Source of the DNA: Deltaproteobacteria bacterium
Lineage (GTDB): Bacteria > CG2-30-53-67
Direction of reading: 5' to 3'
DNA length: 64,000 nucleotides
Assembly: GCA_013151235.1 (NCBI GenBank)
Contig: JAADIO010000035.1
Location: 1-64,000, forward strand
Part shown: positions 4,198 through 37,328 of the stretch, piece after piece
Position numbering within the stretch: position 1 is the first letter of the stretch
Layout of the letters: each line of letters begins with the position of its first letter
The notes under the pieces: model-generated
Databases searched by the model: none
What the model was told of the DNA's origin: nothing
Seen by the model: only the letters and a program-made list of their open reading frames with translations
Translations under genes and position numbers: made by a program

Positions 4198-4385
4198 TTT
4201 CTTCTCCTCCGGTATTCTTTTTGTTCAGTTTTTATTGCCTTCCTGGCCGATATAAGCCGCACAACTTCCTCACTGTCTCGAAAACAGTGGCAAACGATGA
4301 GAATACGTAACTTGAAACTCATCCCAAGCACGATCCCATAATGTTTATTTTCCCATACGTTAAAAGGATTCGAGCACCGGAACAA
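4194..4385 (-). pseudogene. BrnT-family toxin remnant (C-terminal half)
   Basis: VLGMSFKLRILIVCHCFRDSEEVVRLISARKA; the N-terminal FEWD/KHG region is not recognisable. Confidence 0.7.
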
Positions 4386-4422
4386 ACGCAGTCCTGCGGA
4401 AAAACAGGGGTGATATGGGCCG

Positions 4423-6822
4423 TTACATCTCTTCGACGCGCTTCTTATAAAGCAGATGATACAACGTCCGCGAATAGATTTTCATCTTCCGTTTCTCGAT
4501 GTTGGTTACGGCATACCGCCAGAAGCCATAGAGCTTGGTCTGTTTCAGCAGTTTCTCGCTGTAGTGCCGCCAGGTGTATTTTTCCTCGATCCGTTGAATG
4601 GCATTGTTGGAGATATGATTCCAGGTCAGCGGACCCTCCCCTCCCTTCTTCAGGAAATCGATCAGTTGGTCCCGCAGGAGATCGTGTCGAGTCGGGTTGA
4701 TGAGGAAGCCATTCACTCCATTCCGAATGATCTCCGAGGGTCCGCCGAACTGGGTGGCAAAGACCGGCAATCCGCAGGACATCGCCTCCAGAACGGTCAG
4801 GCCAAACGCTTCGAAGAGGGCCGGCTGAACAAAAAAACCGCTGTGATCGGCGATAACCCGGTAAATCTCCCCCGTATCCTCCTTTTTAAGCTGCATCCCG
4901 ATCCATCGGATCTTTCCCTCCAGGTGATACTCTTCGATCAATCGGTGCATCCGGAGAACCTCTTCTTTTTCTTCCGGGTCGTCGGTGGCCTCGGGGTCGA
5001 TCTTCCCGGCAATAATGATCAGGTTGGCCCGGTCCTGAATTTCGGGATACTTTCCGAAACATTCCACAAGGCCGGTAACATTTTTGATCTTGTCGAGGCG
5101 AGCCATGGTAAAAATCGGTGTCTTCCCCGGGTCGTCAAGACATCCGAAGATCTCTTCCCCTTCCCGTTCAAAGATGAAGGAAGTGAGTTCACTACAGCGT
5201 TTCTTGTCACGCCGGTCTTTTTCGGAATAGGGATAGTAGACCGATTCATCCACACCGGGCGAAATGACATTGAATTTCGGGTGGAAGAGATTGATCCCTC
5301 CCAGCACCTGGCAGAAGCCCGGCATGGTGTAGTGCTGGTAGGACTCGTACTGCCCCATGACGGAGGCCGTTCCGGCGATCTCCTGGAAGGTGCTGGTAAT
5401 AATGAAGTCGGCCATGTTCATCGACAGCAGATCGGCGGTAAACTGAAGGGAAAAATGGTACTCCGGCTCCATCTCCTCCCAGTAGAGATCGGAGAAAAGG
5501 TATTTCGATTTCTCCAGGGCATGGGCGATATTGCACTGGATCACGCCGGTCTCCTCGGAGAGCAGGGAAGCGACGAGGTTCCCGTCGGAGTAGTTCCCGA
5601 TGATCAGGTCAGGGTGCCTCCCCAGCTCGACCTTCAATTCATCGAGGGCCTCGTAGGCGAACTGTTCCAGGTAGGGCCAGACCCAGAAACGGGAGATCCA
5701 GTAGGGGATGACATTTTTCTCCCGGTCACGGAAGGGAACCCGGAGAATCCAGCAGTTCCGGGTGTTTTTGATCTTCTCCAGCCGCTCGTGGCAGGTGGTA
5801 TTTTCACTCTCCGGGATGAGCCGGGTCACCACCATGATCTTCGGTTCAAAGTCGAGGCCGGAAAGGAGAAGGTTCTCCGCAAGGGCGGTCTCCAGGGCAT
5901 GAACCTGATCAAGGATGTAGACCACCTGCCCCCCCGTGTCGGGTTTGCCCAGGACATTTTCCTGCCCGAAAAAACCATGGGGGGAGATGATAGCGACTCG
6001 GGAGACCATGGGAATCCGGGAGATAAAACTCTCCAGCGCCAGACTGTCCGGCGCCTCAAAGAGATCCAGGAGAAGCTGCATCGATTCGAGGACCCGTTCC
6101 GGGGAATTGCCCCACCCCGGCTCAAAACCGAAGATCTGCAGTTTCTGCGTGACCTCGGCAAAGGAGAGCGCCCCATCCACCTCTTCCAGCCATGCCACGG
6201 CCCGGTCGAGCATATCGAGCAGTTGGTCCTCGTTCCGGATTTTCTCCCCGTTGACCAGGAGCTGTTTTCCCCCCAGGCAATGAATCTTCAAAAACTCAAA
6301 GAGTTTCCGGTGCCACGTATCCGGGTTCTGGAAGAGACTGCTCGACATGTGGCGATTCAGAAATTCGATCCCCTTGCCGACATTGCGTGGGTCCCGGATC
6401 AGGGGAGAATAGTCGTAAAAGGGGGTGAAGTCGATCTTCAGTTTCATGGGAGTGGCACCGTTTTCCTCCCGGATACAACTGTCCCGTAAATCGAGGAGTT
6501 CTCCGACGGAAATCTGCTCGGGTTCCCCGAACTCCGTGTCGGTATGGGAAAACTTATAGATTCGGTCCTTGCCCATCTGGTAGCGGTGGATAAGGACGGC
6601 AAATCCGTCAAAAAGGATCATCTCGGGGACCTTGCCTAAGAAGGAATCCAGGGACGACAAGTCCCGCAACGCTTTTCCCTTTCCCCGAAAATCCTCCCAG
6701 GCCAGAAGAAGGTCATTCCTCAGGAGGTACCGTTTTTCTCCCCGGAAGAGTTGATGGAGAAAGGCATGAAAATCCCGGACGGATTCCTCCGGAACCAGAT
6801 CAATCCATTGAGTTTTTCTCAT
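4423..6822 (-). CDS. susA: Sucrose synthase (GT4)
   Basis: 799 aa; SPHGFFGQENVLGKPDTGGQVVYILDQV, IIGNYSDGNLVA, AHALEKSKY, MARLDKIKN, QPALFEAFGLTVLEAM. Confidence 0.95.
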   Translation of the reverse strand: MRKTQWIDLVPEESVRDFHAFLHQLFRGEKRYLLRNDLLLAWEDFRGKGKALRDLSSLDSFLGKVPEMILFDGFAVLIHRYQMGKDRIYKFSHTDTEFGEPEQISVGELLDLRDSCIREENGATPMKLKIDFTPFYDYSPLIRDPRNVGKGIEFLNRHMSSSLFQNPDTWHRKLFEFLKIHCLGGKQLLVNGEKIRNEDQLLDMLDRAVAWLEEVDGALSFAEVTQKLQIFGFEPGWGNSPERVLESMQLLLDLFEAPDSLALESFISRIPMVSRVAIISPHGFFGQENVLGKPDTGGQVVYILDQVHALETALAENLLLSGLDFEPKIMVVTRLIPESENTTCHERLEKIKNTRNCWILRVPFRDREKNVIPYWISRFWVWPYLEQFAYEALDELKVELGRHPDLIIGNYSDGNLVASLLSEETGVIQCNIAHALEKSKYLFSDLYWEEMEPEYHFSLQFTADLLSMNMADFIITSTFQEIAGTASVMGQYESYQHYTMPGFCQVLGGINLFHPKFNVISPGVDESVYYPYSEKDRRDKKRCSELTSFIFEREGEEIFGCLDDPGKTPIFTMARLDKIKNVTGLVECFGKYPEIQDRANLIIIAGKIDPEATDDPEEKEEVLRMHRLIEEYHLEGKIRWIGMQLKKEDTGEIYRVIADHSGFFVQPALFEAFGLTVLEAMSCGLPVFATQFGGPSEIIRNGVNGFLINPTRHDLLRDQLIDFLKKGGEGPLTWNHISNNAIQRIEEKYTWRHYSEKLLKQTKLYGFWRYAVTNIEKRKMKIYSRTLYHLLYKKRVEEM

Positions 6823-27249: not shown

Positions 27250-29001
27250 ATGAGAAAAAAAACCGCCAGAAAACAGCCGTCCATCCCCAAAGAAAAAACA
27301 CTGAAGGTCATCCGTTCCTCCATCGCAAACAGGAAGAAGGAATGGCAGGGGAAGGAACGAGGAGATGGTTTCGTCATCATCCAGATCGACGGGCTCCCCC
27401 ATCCGATCCTGATGCAGGCCTTGTCCGAAGGCTACATGCCCTTTGTACAAGGGCTCCTTGCATCGGGAGATTTTAATGTCAGTCGTTACCGTTGCGGAAT
27501 CCCCGGCAACACCCCGGCCTCGCAGAGCGGGATCATGTACGGTGAAAATTTCGGGATCCCGGCCTTCCGATGGCTCGACAAACAGAACGACAGCCTTGTA
27601 AGTTTCAAGAACCCCCTCTCGGCACAAACCGTGGAACAGAGCATTTCCCAGGGAAAACGGGGGATCCTGGAGAACGGGAGCAGTTACATCAATCTCCTCT
27701 CGGGAGGCGCCAAACGCTCCGTACTAACCTTGAGCACCTTTCTGACGCAGGACATGCAGAAACGGATCTCCGGACTCGCCATTTTCTTCCTTTTCTTTTT
27801 CAACATCATTCCCGTCTTCCGCTCCCTTCTTTCTTCCGTACTGGAACTGTTTCGGGAACTCTATGAATACCTGGAGATCCGCCTGAAGGGAGGCGTACAA
27901 AAAAGTGAAGGATTCTTCCCGATGGTCCGGATCTTCTCTAATGTCCTGTTTTTTGAAGTCGCCACCGTTGGGGCACTCATCGACATCAATCAGGGAAGAC
28001 CCTCCATCTGGCTGACCTACAACGGATACGACGAGGCCGCACACCAGCGTGGGCCGGAAACCAAATATGCGCTCAAAACCCTTCGCGTGATTGATCGGGG
28101 GATTCGGAAAATCGTTCGCCAGATCCGGAAAAAACGTCGGGGAATGCACTACGATGTTTACATTCTCTCCGATCATGGACAACACCCCTCCATTCCCTTC
28201 CGCTACGAGTTCGGGGAAACCCTGGAAAACTTCATCTACTCCAAGGTCAAGGAAGGACGAATTGCCCAGTACGATTCCGGCGGGGATGTCAAGGATTACC
28301 TCATGCTCGCCCTGAGTTCCACTCTTTACAACTTTGCAGATCAGAACCTTTTTTTCATGCGGAGAATCTTCAAACGGATCGCAAAATACATCGAGCGGAA
28401 CATCCTTCCGGAAGAAACCCGAAAGATCACCGGGAACATCTCCATCGTTAACTCCAGCCCCATGTCCAATCTCTATTTTAATATCGACCGTGGACGAGTC
28501 GATTTGGAACAGATTGAACGGGTCTATCCCGGTCTGGTGGGAGCCCTCGTCCGCCACAAGGGGATCGGCCTCATCCTCGCCCGGTCGGACGGTGATCCGA
28601 TGATCCTCTCCCGGGCAGGTCGGGTCTTCTACCATCACGGCAAAAAACGGATTGACGGAGACGATCCCCTGAGCGGATTCGAGGATGCGGAATTAATCGA
28701 AGCGGAAATCCTTCAGCAATTCTCCATGCCGAACGCCGGAGACCTCGTCCTCTACGGCGCCTTCAAGGAAGGGCGGATCATCAACTTCGAAGAACAGATG
28801 GGCGGTCACGGGGGAATCGGCGGGATGCAGAACACCCCCTTCATCCTCTATCCCAGCCGGATCAAGTACGCCTTCCACTCCATCCGGAATTCCAGGGAGC
28901 TCTATCCGGTCTTTTCAAAATACCTCGGGAAACCATCCCCCCTGACCCCCTCCCCACCCGATCAAGGCCACGCTCTGATGGAAGGGGCAGACCAAGAGTG
29001 A
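27250..29001 (+). CDS. Alkaline phosphatase superfamily (type I phosphodiesterase-like) protein
   Basis: IQIDGL, TPASQSGI, GYDEAAH, LSDHGQ, GGHGGIGG. Confidence 0.8.
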   Translation: MRKKTARKQPSIPKEKTLKVIRSSIANRKKEWQGKERGDGFVIIQIDGLPHPILMQALSEGYMPFVQGLLASGDFNVSRYRCGIPGNTPASQSGIMYGENFGIPAFRWLDKQNDSLVSFKNPLSAQTVEQSISQGKRGILENGSSYINLLSGGAKRSVLTLSTFLTQDMQKRISGLAIFFLFFFNIIPVFRSLLSSVLELFRELYEYLEIRLKGGVQKSEGFFPMVRIFSNVLFFEVATVGALIDINQGRPSIWLTYNGYDEAAHQRGPETKYALKTLRVIDRGIRKIVRQIRKKRRGMHYDVYILSDHGQHPSIPFRYEFGETLENFIYSKVKEGRIAQYDSGGDVKDYLMLALSSTLYNFADQNLFFMRRIFKRIAKYIERNILPEETRKITGNISIVNSSPMSNLYFNIDRGRVDLEQIERVYPGLVGALVRHKGIGLILARSDGDPMILSRAGRVFYHHGKKRIDGDDPLSGFEDAELIEAEILQQFSMPNAGDLVLYGAFKEGRIINFEEQMGGHGGIGGMQNTPFILYPSRIKYAFHSIRNSRELYPVFSKYLGKPSPLTPSPPDQGHALMEGADQE

Positions 29002-29094
29002 GACCCCAAGAAGCAATCGGATGGGCACTCTGAAACGTTTGAGATTCAATTAGAAATGAAATCAGGCAACCACTTTCCGGGGAAGGATCATACG

Positions 29095-29335
29095 CCGGAA
29101 CCGACCGCCGATTCGGCGAATCAGATGCAGGGCAAGCCGGCGGTGCAGGTTCCAACGCTCCATGGCGAGTGCAATGCAAAAGCCCCCCCAGAAAGAGAAA
29201 GATGTTCTCGTTGGCGTAGGGTCGCGCAATGGCGACGCTGTTCATGATCCCCAGGAGCGGAAACAACAACAGCGGCGCCAGCGCCGTGACCGGAATGGGG
29301 ATTGCCTCGGTCATCCAGCAACAGACCATCAGAAC
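29095..29335 (-). pseudogene. Fragment of an SLC13/DASS-family Na+:anion symporter
   Basis: WMTEAIPIPVTALAPLLLFPLLGI...YANENIFLFLGG, then a frameshift to FCIALAMERWNLHRRLAL; both ends missing. Confidence 0.8.
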
Positions 29336-29401: not shown

Positions 29402-30199
29402 TTAAAGCGCTTCCTTGCGGCGTTGACGTTCGCGCAGATCATCCTTGGTCCATACATAGGGAAGATCAATCACCGTTCCCGCAGGAAGTTTTTCGGCCGC
29501 ATAGCGCAAACAGTCGAGCAAGATATTTTCGTGTGTAATGGAATCTCCCACATCGCCGAGGGTCAGGCCGAAGGGATGACGAAGATAGAGGGCCAGGGAG
29601 GGCTTCACCTGCAGGGTGATCTCCCGCACCAGGGAGATCGAGACCGTGCACAGGCCCATCCGGTCGAGAACTCTCTGAATCAGTCCCACGGACTGGCTAC
29701 AGACCGGTCAGGAGGGCACCAGGATCACGAGATCGACTCCGTCATCGAGAAGCGCGCCGCCAACCAAAGGCACCCGTTCCGCGATCAGTTTTTCCGGAAA
29801 AGGAACATACCCCATGAAAGAGAAATGTCTCGGAGCCGCCTCACGGATCGCCCCTTCGATCCGCAGCTGTTTCAACAGTCCCAAGGGGAAAACGCAGTCC
29901 AGGTCTTTCAATGCGCGCTTCGTGTCGTAGCCGGGATGGGCTAAAGCGATCTCTTCCGGATCGATATCGTTCGGGATAACCCGAAAGCTGTCATCTCCCA
30001 GCTTATTGCGGGTGGAAAACGGCCCCTGACGATTGCGCAAATAGGCTCCTGATGTGGTGACCAGTGCAACCCGGCATTGATCAACCGGTTTTCCAACGGG
30101 ATGGTGATCGGTCGGCCGGCTGAAGTACATCCATTCAAAATCAGGCAGGATACGGCTTCGGATATAGTCTCTTTCAACCTCTGCGAAGTTCAAACTCAC
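29402..30199 (-). CDS. Selenoprotein of the PrdB/GrdB (Gly/Pro reductase selenoprotein B) type; Sec at codon 164 in a UxxC motif
   Basis: ORFs 29708-30199 and 29402-29689 are in frame; read-through gives VDLVILVPS-U-PVCSQSVGLIQR. Also VALVTTSG, GYD, DLDCVFPL, FSFMGY, PFGLTLG; GTG start with AAAGGAG. Confidence 0.9.
29660..29707 (-). promoter_or_regulatory. Bacterial SECIS-like hairpin
   Basis: After UGA: CCGG-UCUG-UAGC-CAGUCC-GUG-GGACUG-AUU-CAGA; G-led loop begins 18 nt after the UGA. Confidence 0.75.
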
Positions 30200-30246
30200 T
30201 GACTCCTTTTCCTTTCGTCGCGACCGAGAGCCTCTCCGGAAGGCTT

Positions 30247-30423
30247 AGTGGCCCTATTCGTAAATACGGTGGCCTGTCTGCGTGCGGCCCGCCCGCACAG
30301 GCAGGCCTCGTCTTCGTTGCGCTCCCTACACCGTACCACAGGGGGTACGCTTCAGTCGCGTGCCTTGATGAGACCGTCCTGCGACCCTCTCGGTGCGTCA
30401 CAGTATTTGCGAACAGGACCTCT
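30247..30423. mobile_element. MITE-like element, copy 1
   Basis: Ends AGTGGCCCTATTCGTAAATAC and GTATTTGCGAACAGGACCTCT are imperfect 21-bp IRs; inverted homolog at 36097-36294. Confidence 0.8.
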
Positions 30424-30703
30424 TGGGATCATCAGATTGTTGTTCCCGGAGGGCTGTGATTTGTGAGTGCAATGAAACTCCAAAGGGCACGATGAAACAG
30501 AGGACCACTTGAATGAAACTTCTTTTTGTAAGGGCTTCTCCAAATAGAAGATCAGTGTGATTAATCAGCACGAGCATGATCCCCACGATCAAAGAAACAC
30601 GCGTTGCCCGAAGAAATATTTTTATGGATGTTTCCCTTTGTGTTCTCAAAAATCGTTCTCTACCTCGGAAATTGTCCCCTATTCTTTTCTGTTCTTCAAC
30701 CAA
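30398..30703 (-). CDS. Small two-TM protein, NrtS-like
   Basis: RATRVSLIVGIMLVLINH...VLCFIVPFGVS; the last codons come from the MITE. Confidence 0.6.
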   Translation of the reverse strand: MVEEQKRIGDNFRGRERFLRTQRETSIKIFLRATRVSLIVGIMLVLINHTDLLFGEALTKRSFIQVVLCFIVPFGVSLHSQITALREQQSDDPKRSCSQIL

Positions 30704-31661: not shown

Positions 31662-31703
31662 CTCCTATAATACAGGTTAACAAAATAACCGCCCAAATTA
31701 TAA

Positions 31704-31717
31704 ACCGAACGTCCGGT
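31704..31717. promoter_or_regulatory. Putative TetR operator upstream of the ahpD-like gene
   Basis: ACCGAACGTCCGGT imperfect palindrome next to a minus-strand TATAAT (31697-31702). Confidence 0.6.
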
Positions 31718-31741
31718 ATAATAATGTGCAAAAAAAAGAGA

Positions 31742-32341
31742 TTATTCCTTCAAACCAATCAATACCTCAAGGGATTTCAAACAGTTTTGGAACAATCTTT
31801 CATCCTTTTCAAGTCTAGCCATCATGATGCAGCCTTCCAGCGTTGAAACCACATGACGGGCTAGCAGGTGGGCGGAAAGATCGTTCCGTACTTCGCCTGA
31901 AACCTGTGCGTTTTTGATAACGTCCTGAAGTTTTTCTACCCATTCTTCAAAGATCCCTCTGATAAAGTTTGCGAAGAAAGGCTCCTTGTCACTCATTTCC
32001 AGGGCGGTATTTCCGAAGATACACCCTCCCACGAAACCATTGCTTTTATGCTTTTTGAATACACATTGAAAGAAACGGCGGAGTGATGCACCCGGTGTTG
32101 TACCGGAGAGGGAGCGGTTGAGAAACTCCAGGAATTCTTCCCTGGCCTTTTTCAGGATGGCAAGAGCCAGGGCATCTTTCCCTTCAAAATGAAAATAGAG
32201 ACTCCCTTTTTTCAGCCCCGTGGCCGCAACCAGATCATTGATGCTGGTGGCTCCAAATCCCTTCTGATGAAAAAGACGGGTCGCCTCGGAAAGTATTTTT
32301 TCCCGCGTCACCCCCCCTTTGGTTTGCATCTCGCCTCCCAC
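31742..32341 (-). CDS. TetR/AcrR-family regulator (NemR-like)
   Basis: TREKIL...GLKKGSLYFHFEGK HTH; GCIFGNTALE. Confidence 0.92.
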   Translation of the reverse strand: MGGEMQTKGGVTREKILSEATRLFHQKGFGATSINDLVAATGLKKGSLYFHFEGKDALALAILKKAREEFLEFLNRSLSGTTPGASLRRFFQCVFKKHKSNGFVGGCIFGNTALEMSDKEPFFANFIRGIFEEWVEKLQDVIKNAQVSGEVRNDLSAHLLARHVVSTLEGCIMMARLEKDERLFQNCLKSLEVLIGLKE

Positions 32342-32348
32342 ACCAAAA

Positions 32349-32393
32349 ACCGACCGTTTGGTCTATATTAGTCTCCCGAAAAACATTTGTCAA
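32349..32393 (-). promoter_or_regulatory. sigma70 promoter of tetR with adjacent operator
   Basis: TTGACA-17 nt-TAATAT, followed by ACCAAACGGTCGGT (32349-32362). Confidence 0.7.
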
Positions 32394-36096: not shown

Positions 36097-36294
36097 AGTA
36101 GTCCTGTTCGTAAATACTGTGACGCACCGAGAGGATTGCAGGATGGCCTCATCAGGGCGTGTAACAAAGGCATACCCCTGTGGTACTGCAGAGAGCACAA
36201 CGTAGAGGAAGAAGCCGTCCTGCGGCACTCAAATGCCTGCCTGTGCGGGCGGGCCGCACGCAGACAGGCCACCGTATTTACGAATAGGGCCCCT
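36097..36294. mobile_element. MITE-like element, copy 2 (inverted relative to copy 1)
   Basis: Ends AGTAGTCCTGTTCGTAAATAC and GTATTTACGAATAGGGCCCCT; internal homology to 30247-30423. Confidence 0.8.
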
Positions 36295-37328
36295 TAGAAG
36301 AGGGTCGGAGGGTCCTCCGCCCGGGCCTTCTCTTCTTCCACCGGTTTCTCCAGCGAGAGCGGTGGAGATTTCTCCGATTCCCGTTTCCGGTCAAACCCCT
36401 TGAAAACATACTGACCAAGAAGGGAATGATACTTGCTCCATCGTTCCGGGGAAGGATCGGCCATGAGCTGACGGAAGACTTGCACCTTGGCATCAAGATC
36501 GTCCAACATGTGGAGTACGAGGGCCTCCAGGGTCATCGGTTTAACCGGTGAACCGAACTCCTCCCGACCGTGATGGGAGAGCAGAAGATGTTTTAAAAGG
36601 AGCGCCTTCTCTTCCGGAAAGGAGGGCAGAGACCGGATCACTTCGGAGATCCACTCGAGTTCGATGGAAATATGCCCGAGGAGCCGCCCTCGATCCGAAT
36701 AATCGAAGCCGCGAAGATAGGTAAGCTCTTCCACCTTCCCCAGGTCATGCAGAAGGATGCCGGTCCGGAGGAGATCCCGGTCCAGCTCGGGATAATGGGG
36801 GGCCACCCGTTCCCCTAATCCAAAGAGGGAGAGCGTATGTTCGAGAAGACCGCCCAAGTAGGCATGATGCATCGCCTTGGCGGCAGGCGCCCGGCGCATC
36901 TTGTCTGCAAGGGAGGGGTCCTCGAAGATAGACTGCAGGAGTTTCCGGTAGTCGGGATCCGCCACCGTCTCCCGTGCCGCCGTCAACGCCGTCCACATTT
37001 CCTCCGGGTCCCGGGCGGAAGAAGGAAGAAAATCAGCAGGATCAATCGTTGCATCCTCCACACGGACGAGGGACTGCAGGCTCATCTGGAGTTTTCCGTT
37101 ATACTCCGTAACCTGCCCCGCCACCTGAAGAAAGTCCCCTTTCGAAAATTCCTGCGCCACCCGGTCGGCCTTCTCCCAAACCTTGGCATCGATCTCGCCG
37201 GAACGGTCACCTAATTTCACCGTTAAAAATGGTTTGCCTGCCCGCGTCGTGGCCAAACTCTTTGCCCGTACCAGATAGATTCCGCTGACCTTTTGTCCCT
37301 CCGCCAGTTCTGCAATCCTGCATCCCAT
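36294..37328 (-). CDS. yhaM: OB-fold plus HD-domain 3'-5' exoribonuclease (YhaM/Cbf1 family)
   Basis: GKPFL..LGDRSGEIDAKVW, PAAKAMHHAYLGGLLEHT, LHDLGK, GHI, LSHHG..EFGSP, DDLDAK. Confidence 0.88.
   Translation of the reverse strand: MGCRIAELAEGQKVSGIYLVRAKSLATTRAGKPFLTVKLGDRSGEIDAKVWEKADRVAQEFSKGDFLQVAGQVTEYNGKLQMSLQSLVRVEDATIDPADFLPSSARDPEEMWTALTAARETVADPDYRKLLQSIFEDPSLADKMRRAPAAKAMHHAYLGGLLEHTLSLFGLGERVAPHYPELDRDLLRTGILLHDLGKVEELTYLRGFDYSDRGRLLGHISIELEWISEVIRSLPSFPEEKALLLKHLLLSHHGREEFGSPVKPMTLEALVLHMLDDLDAKVQVFRQLMADPSPERWSKYHSLLGQYVFKGFDRKRESEKSPPLSLEKPVEEEKARAEDPPTLF

Follow-up and report, generated by a model that had tools for sequence, protein, structure and literature searches.

The locus described here raises two questions, namely whether a pair of neighbouring open reading frames is in fact one selenoprotein gene, and what a protein of the PrdB/GrdB type could do where the partners of these reductases are missing. 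Environmental surveys find PrdB-like UxxC proteins among their most abundant selenoproteins and count them as proline reductase. As far as the available parts of these sources go, this has been the practice since 2005: the Sargasso Sea survey reported 42 non-clostridial UxxC 'proline reductase' genes (PMC1088965) and the GOS survey 235 (PMC2398784), such selenoproteins of Geobacter uraniireducens and Anaeromyxobacter were listed as well (PMC1794560), and the name is kept in reviews of 2022 and 2026 (PMC9312934, PMC13188914; context also from bioRxiv 10.1101/2022.07.06.499078 and PMC10579247). A search of the open-access PMC and bioRxiv literature found no paper on prdA-less PrdB-like proteins or on an AhpD/ArsS context. 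The gene investigated here lies in a 64,000-nucleotide stretch of deltaproteobacterial DNA, called the window below, and belongs to a genome (G000) that is 99.25% complete with 0% contamination.

The two minus-strand open reading frames, 29708-30199 (163 aa) and 29402-29689 (95 aa), share one frame and are separated only by the TGA at 29708-29710 and six sense codons (PVCSQS), just as a preliminary description of this DNA had it. Reading through the TGA gives a 265-aa protein with P-S-U164-P-V-C167. The motif and the length counted from GTG 30199 stand as that description gave them, but a start at TTG 30193 (263 aa, U162) appears likelier, since the AGGAG lies 9 nt ahead of the TTG and only 3 nt ahead of the GTG, and since the database protein of this gene begins with M-N-F and its homologues with M-N/S-F. 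The 265-aa numbering is used throughout. Databases carry the clade to which the protein belongs almost only as a 161-aa fragment. The features of the locus are collected in Table 1.

Table 1. Features of the selenoprotein locus and of the genes upstream of it (window coordinates).
Feature	Position	Strand	Basis
PrdB-like selenoprotein gene, UxxC at U164/C167 (265-aa numbering)	29402..30199	-	read-through translation, TIGR04483, PF07355
In-frame UGA, predicted to be read as selenocysteine	29708..29710	-	homologue ends, locus sequences, Cys homologues
Bacterial SECIS hairpin; upper stem 29690-29695 with 29681-29686, loop GUG 29687-29689	29674..29703	-	fold, synonymous conservation, compensatory changes
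Ribosome-binding site AGGAG, 9 nt before TTG 30193	30203..30207	-	sequence
Dispersed repeat of ~160 bp, inserted before the gene	30244..30400	.	blastn
Small NrtS-family membrane protein gene, NF038050 44 bits (cut-off 25)	30398..30703	-	profile match
134-aa hypothetical protein, no Pfam/NCBIfam family; shared only with L019 and L020	30679..31083	-	profile and neighbour searches
AhpD-like peroxidase-related gene, TIGR01926 122.5 bits (cut-off 81.8), PF02627; C78-x-Y-C81	31122..31661	-	profile match, alignment
Second TetR operator-like palindrome, upstream of the AhpD-like gene; score 22.1	31701..31720	-	motif scan
TetR repressor (PF00440 + PF16925)	31742..32341	-	profile match
Sigma-70-like promoter TTGACA-17-TAATAT (32393-32365), abutting the main operator palindrome (32346-32365)	32346..32393	-	motif scan

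The recoding of the UGA is best judged from the relatives of the gene. Among 93 database homologues 89 stop exactly at the UGA codon, and the four full-length ones comprise two with CxxC and two in which the first Cys is lost. UGA occupies the site in 22 of the 23 fetched loci, which were retrieved with a pattern built on the N-terminal half of the protein, and Cys takes its place in P0092, P0093 and L200. A single TGA lies inside every match in two genome sets (12/12 in 41 related genomes, 37/37 in 151 Desulfuromonadia genomes), and P165, C167, Q169 and S170, in the short stretch that leads from the UGA to the false second start, are invariant (25/25). The hairpin folds as had been drawn, with its GUG loop 18 nt past the UGA, and the same GUG serves as the 'start codon' of the false second frame; a G is present in the apical loop, but the Val codon fixes it as well. 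Taken by itself this hairpin is weak (z -1.16, 28 of 200 shuffles folding equally well), and we count it as real on the comparative evidence from synonymous conservation and compensatory changes. The fourfold third positions of S170, V171, G172 and L173 are 96, 88, 88 and 100% conserved in 24 close sequences, whereas at 57 other fourfold sites of the same sequences the median is 48% and no value exceeds 83%. Over the 7 pairs of the stem 97.9% of cells are paired in 60 sequences that were not selected by the SECIS motif, compared with 9-59% in slid controls, and in the same 60 sequences the Gln and Leu stem codons covary (CAG/CTG 47, CAA/TTG 10, CAA/CTG never); the loci L042-L161, picked by a SECIS-containing pattern, were excluded from these tests. 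The genome holds selA, selB and selD above the cut-offs, selD with an in-frame TGA of its own, and tRNA-Sec (selC) was found. The preliminary description had proposed a selenoprotein and had named Cys or Sec at codon 164 of homologues and selA, selB, selC and selD in the genome as checks; the data support the proposal. That the UGA is a true stop, leaving a pseudogene or two separate genes, is hardly credible: the lone hairpin is not significant and the internal TAG of the clade member L041 shows that decay does happen, but the invariant residues beyond the UGA, the SECIS covariation, the Cys homologues and the full Sec machinery all stand against it. On comparative grounds the gene is a predicted, mis-annotated selenoprotein gene, i.e. 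one enzyme cut in two at the UGA.

A genome-wide reading of UGA as Trp or Gly was rejected, because TGA terminates ordinary genes, ArsS among them. A crude search of the whole genome for UGA plus hairpin gave 417 matches and was too noisy to point out other selenoproteins; a glutaredoxin-like frame with W-U-P-H-C on contig C4 (TGA at 416, plus strand) is likely a second UxxC selenoprotein of this genome. Four distant homologues (P0083, P0094, L040 and L017) miss one catalytic residue, the Sec being replaced by Glu or Ser or the resolving Cys by Asp, and are possibly non-redox or monothiol forms.

The assignment to the PrdB/GrdB superfamily, also made in the preliminary description, is upheld by PF07355 (GRDB; 26 bits, above its cut-off of 22) and by TIGR04483 (PrdB) as the best family match, though the latter, with 109.6 bits, stays below its cut-off of 300. 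The GrdB, GrdF and GrdH models give 27-39 bits and do not pass their cut-offs of 602-800, and the identity to annotated PrdB proteins is 28-31%. In a quickly built tree of 99 rows, only 4 of them PrdB, one branch sets the 27 close relatives apart (SH-aLRT 99) and another the PrdB rows (SH-aLRT 100); a topology that unites the two is rejected, though weakly (p-AU 0.038). R73, H88, Y91, D99, U164, C167, Q175, R176 and T185 are present in 27/27 clade rows and in 4/4 PrdB rows, and this retention of the PrdB catalytic core argues for a kept substrate pocket and the same selenium/sulfur chemistry. E9, R14, H208, C230, R256, Q259 and K262 are specific to the clade. Judging by profiles, tree and residues, the protein is to be placed in a distinct prdA-less clade of the superfamily, as neither PrdB nor GrdB.

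The AlphaFold model (pLDDT 94.4) puts U164 just before the helix 165-180. A PDB sequence search with the protein and with its profile gave no match (best E 0.009, a designed protein), Foldseek gave no structural match of the model at E <= 0.001, and the best structural match (Z 8.8, rmsd 3.5, 139 aligned) is to generic alpha/beta folds. The lack of a clear fold match shows neither a new fold nor an absence of relatives. Among longer proteins a fusion search, in which only 8000 candidates were scored, gave 4 matches at 37-42% identity; none of the 4 belongs to the clade or carries an informative fused domain, which is a weak negative at that number of candidates.

Neither PrdA/GrdE (PF09338) nor GrdA (PF04723) nor proline racemase (PF05544) was found above cut-off in the whole genome, no UGSC partner was found in it, and its two thioredoxin-family matches both lie on contigs other than that of the window. 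The earlier claim that the window holds no PrdA/GrdE, GrdA or thioredoxin gene is thereby extended to the genome for PrdA/GrdE and GrdA. PF09338 is also absent from 19 of the 21 other carrier genomes (their completeness is not given), and in the remaining two it lies on other contigs than the selenoprotein gene. In fetched annotated prdB loci prdA adjoins prdB in 3 of 4 cases. The annotated prdB of Peptoclostridium acidaminophilum (L196, NZ_CP007453.1) has no prdA within 3.5 kb. A Stickland-type amino-acid reductase, with its partner missing from the assembly or non-homologous, would agree with TIGR04483 as the best family match and with the kept PrdB core. However, the complete set of partners is lacking in a nearly complete genome, PF09338 is absent from or unlinked in the carriers, annotated prdB usually has prdA at its side and the joint tree is rejected, if weakly; we hold this reading to be very improbable and largely refuted. 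Since the pyruvoyl partner is missing genome-wide, the clade cannot be a proline reductase, and the non-Stickland function that had been proposed for the protein is favoured by the genomes and by the separate clade alike.

The second half of that proposal, a stand-alone enzyme, is right only insofar as PrdA/GrdE is missing: the gene closes a conserved cassette whose TetR and AhpD-like genes lie 0.9-2.1 kb upstream. The order on one strand is tetR, the AhpD-like gene with its CxxC, small genes and the selenoprotein gene, last in the unit, where neighbour families are named from among the matches listed (123 of 132 picked ORFs). The NrtS-family gene is a local passenger, found also in L019, and the ~160-bp repeat is intergenic, has internal palindromes and occurs in about 20 related copies on at least 15 contigs of the genome, one of them at 36120-36297 of the window. 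The Cys in the GC[IL]FGN motif of the repressor is invariant in 27/27 motif matches, none of which has Sec in the TetR. Besides the window, 12 of the 26 loci scanned have the palindrome ahead of tetR, namely those in which tetR and the DNA upstream of it are present. When the genome is ranked by the operator motif, which was defined by eye from these same loci, the tetR promoter (32346-32365) comes first, a site inside a coding region on contig C24 second and the site before the AhpD-like gene (31701-31720) is the third-best distinct one. With an invariant Cys and a palindromic putative operator at its own promoter, the repressor resembles a NemR-type thiol-sensing regulator; among 5 PDB matches of the TetR protein at E <= 1e-12 there was no chain named NemR. 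Downstream of the selenoprotein gene lies a minus-strand ORF (28862-29329) whose first ~50 codons are transporter-like, presumably a fragment of a DASS/SLC13 anion transporter, and which then becomes degenerate; it has no Pfam/NCBIfam match and no paralogue in the genome and is probably a remnant.

The linkage to the AhpD-like gene recurs in the clade. Of the 27 clade loci (two of them from one genome; tallies were made by tblastn with neighbour queries and counted by hand), 19 have this gene less than 3 kb upstream, and 3 of the 8 loci without it have less than 1 kb of upstream DNA available. The linkage spans both main branches of the clade and two AhpD paralogues only ~30% alike; the label changes 7 times on the tree, kin not being independent. 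Within 8 kb of the selenoprotein gene the PRK06370 flavoprotein is present in 6/27 loci and ArsM, ArsS or TIGR04282/04283 genes in 9/27. At least one of the AhpD-like, ars-module and PRK06370 genes is found in 24/27. The three loci with none are L024, which has 199 bp of upstream DNA, L029, which has old yellow enzyme and MsrA/B, and L041 with its internal stop. Other neighbours connected to redox or electrophile chemistry are old yellow enzyme (L022, L025, L029), MsrA/MsrB (L029, L030), an OsmC-related protein (L025), GST (L028) and DsrE2 (L020). The clade is patchy, being found in 3/151 Desulfuromonadia, 2/301 Acidobacteriota, 3/9 genomes of the family of the window and in Thermoleophilia, and this patchiness suggests that it travels as a mobile cassette.

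Three further observations concern these loci. In L035 an AhpD-like gene with C-H-Y-U (4209-4763), 1.7 kb upstream of the PrdB-like gene, is itself a CxxU selenoprotein split by ORF calling. In L024 and L252 (G046) the selenoprotein gene and a TetR-AhpD pair lie near contig edges in matching orientation and may be adjacent across an assembly gap. The AhpD-like family distantly matches the debrominase Bmp8 (alignment A4, E 1e-8), a thiol-based reductive dehalogenase.

From these data we propose a thiol-redox module under TetR control in which the single-chain selenoenzyme serves as terminal reductase and acts on a small oxidised or electrophilic substrate; we give this reading a probability of roughly 0.45, i.e. 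somewhat below even odds. In PrdB and GrdB, according to the available parts of two sources, the selenolate attacks a substrate activated by the pyruvoyl partner (PMC13188914, PMC10838667); since there is no such partner here, the substrate must be reactive by itself. The target of the U164 selenolate would be an activated C-X bond or an oxidised centre of sulfur, arsenic or halogen; C167 would then turn the adduct into a selenenyl-sulfide, which the AhpD-like dithiol would reduce. The AhpD-like protein could be recycled from NAD(P)H by a flavoprotein disulfide reductase of the PRK06370 family, encoded on contig C25 in this genome, and electrons would pass from NAD(P)H through the flavoprotein and the AhpD-like CxxC to UxxC and the substrate. 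Oxidant or electrophile stress would be sensed by the Cys of the repressor and the unit would be derepressed. Mycobacterial AhpD relays electrons from a flavoprotein to a terminal enzyme in such a manner. For fluoroacetate, cleavage of the C-F bond by a GrdB-like selenolate whose partner is not a pyruvoyl protein has been proposed, in the part of the source available (PMC10838667).

We favour such a relay because the dependence on the AhpD-like gene is one-way, the PrdB core is kept and the flavoprotein recurs, and the direction of electron flow toward the selenoprotein is inferred from co-occurrence only. Against the relay, the PRK06370 flavoprotein gene is on another contig in the genome of the window, and as two unrelated small genes and the repeat separate the AhpD-like gene from the selenoprotein gene there, co-transcription is unproven. 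Among 64 scanned ORFs (of 79 picked) adjacent to other orphan PrdB-like clades, 42 have a Pfam family and only about 9 of these are thiol or sulfur related, and such mixed neighbours weaken a general thiol-redox reading of the whole superfamily. A second PrdB-like clade that looks prdA-less, with a UGIC motif, occurs in about 32/151 Desulfuromonadia genomes (L166-L192); in 15 loci (16 in the cluster) it is preceded by a gene for a two-domain rhodanese whose N-terminus has a signal-like stretch.

The one-way dependence is seen in the Desulfuromonadia, where the AhpD-like gene is present in 24/151 genomes and the clade in 3/151, all 3 among those 24; G001 and G008, for instance, have the AhpD-like gene and no clade member. 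Because 21 of the 24 AhpD genomes are without the clade, the AhpD-like protein does not depend on the selenoprotein. We fetched 18 of the 24 AhpD loci, leaving out two carriers and four short or partial matches, and none of the 18 stretches holds the selenoprotein. VTT-domain, PRK06370, DUF547, ArsS or ArsM genes lie downstream of the AhpD-like gene in 13 of them, PRK06370 within 5 kb downstream in 11, and ArsS or ArsM within 4 kb of the TetR-AhpD cassette in 6. These counts imply that TetR-AhpD often heads a flavoprotein/ArsS module in which the selenoprotein is optional. In the genome of the window this module is scattered, with ArsS and PRK06370 on C25, TIGR04283 on C11 and TIGR04282 on C10. 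No ArsM was found in the genome and no ars genes are in the cluster, which is not the composition of an arsenosugar (ArsM-ArsS) locus. No operator-like site was found before the ArsS genes or in two stretches upstream of the flavoprotein gene. The ArsS and PRK06370 pair of this ArsM-less genome (C25:109775-112310) occurs also in G001, G005 and G006. Genome-level co-occurrence with ArsS was rejected as evidence, its frequency among the carriers (16/21) being barely above the 60% baseline (90/151 Desulfuromonadia).

It could be argued that the selenoprotein supplies ArsS/ArsM of an arsenosugar pathway with trivalent methylarsenicals by reducing the pentavalent ones (DMAs(V), MAs(V)). The available parts of two papers report that ArsS uses DMAs(III) (PMC13598754) and that anaerobes reduce DMAs(V) (PMC10579292). 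The ars-module genes close to the clade change 6 times on the tree, the TetR-AhpD loci have the arsenic neighbours counted above, and the clade-specific R14, H208, R256 and K262 might bind an oxyanion. The genome of the window has ArsS, PRK06370 and both glycosyltransferases and no ArsM, so it would need a reductase in order to use DMAs(V) from outside. However, its ars genes are on other contigs with no operator-like site before ArsS, 18 of 27 clade loci have no ars gene within reach, genome co-occurrence is uninformative, and only 3 of the 90 Desulfuromonadia genomes with ArsS have the clade, so the selenoprotein is not required for it. We regard an arsenic role as unlikely. An equally unlikely, bolder version makes the clade a dedicated methylarsenate reductase that depends on selenium and draws on the AhpD-like dithiol and an NADPH flavoprotein, and makes the many environmental 'proline reductase' selenoproteins partner-free selenium reductases with clade-specific substrates. 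If a methylarsenical were the substrate, this would put a name to the enzyme behind a reaction that anaerobes are known to carry out in paddy soil and groundwater.

Electrons may also flow the other way, with the UxxC protein acting in the manner of thioredoxin to re-reduce the AhpD-like peroxidase and, elsewhere, ArsM, Msr or OsmC enzymes. The placement of a CxxC or UxxC between a strand and a helix is the geometry of thioredoxin CxxC sites, and in the model the UxxC stands just before a helix and after a strand. The neighbours are often thiol-dependent enzymes, and PRK06370 directly adjoins the selenoprotein gene in L030, L032 and L034, all without an AhpD-like gene. Against this, the AhpD-like gene does without a clade member in most Desulfuromonadia that have it, the genome of the window has an ordinary thioredoxin, and the conserved pocket residues of PrdB would be needless for simple disulfide exchange. 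Reverse flow is on the unlikely side too, yet together with methylarsenate reduction it is the main rival. The terminal-reductase reading is the one we carry forward, and as the TetR and AhpD-like context is present in cultured, non-pathogenic Geobacter relatives, the three-protein system is open to rebuilding and assay. Geobacter argillaceus (L023) and Geotalea toluenoxydans (L031) are cultured carriers of the selenoprotein gene.

Compared with known systems, the protein shares its size, the position of UxxC and the core residues with PrdB (TIGR04483) of Clostridia, Enterococcus and Ligilactobacillus. It differs in having UPVCSQ in place of UGTCHR and FSFMGY in place of MGGGG, in an added N-terminal helix, C230 and basic C-terminal tail, and in its separate place in the tree and a genome without prdA or racemase. 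With GrdB, GrdF and GrdH it shares the PF07355 domain above cut-off and the selenolate nucleophile, whereas it has 265 aa instead of ~430, UxxC instead of the UxxCxxC of GrdB, and no GrdE/GrdA. The GrdB-like FarB of fluoroacetate reduction is, in the available part of the source, a precedent for selenolate attack on a pre-activated C-X bond (PMC10838667), but FarB has the partner FarE and feeds GrdA/C. The UxxC 'PrdB' proteins of the surveys belong to the same superfamily with the same motif, and these sets probably overlap with the clade; in the available parts of those surveys they are named proline reductase, with the missing prdA and the gene context unmentioned. The RclR-RclX and RcsA systems of HOCl defence resemble the cassette in an AhpD-like CxxC protein under a redox-type regulator, AhpD-family proteins acting in HOCl defence according to the available parts of PMC7950407 and PMC9751292. 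The ArsS arsenosugar cluster (TIGR04167, TIGR04169, TIGR04282/04283) has flavoprotein, VTT-domain and DUF547 neighbours in common with it. In the available parts of their descriptions neither of these systems includes a PrdB-like selenoprotein, whereas here the regulator is of the TetR family and the selenoprotein an optional member.
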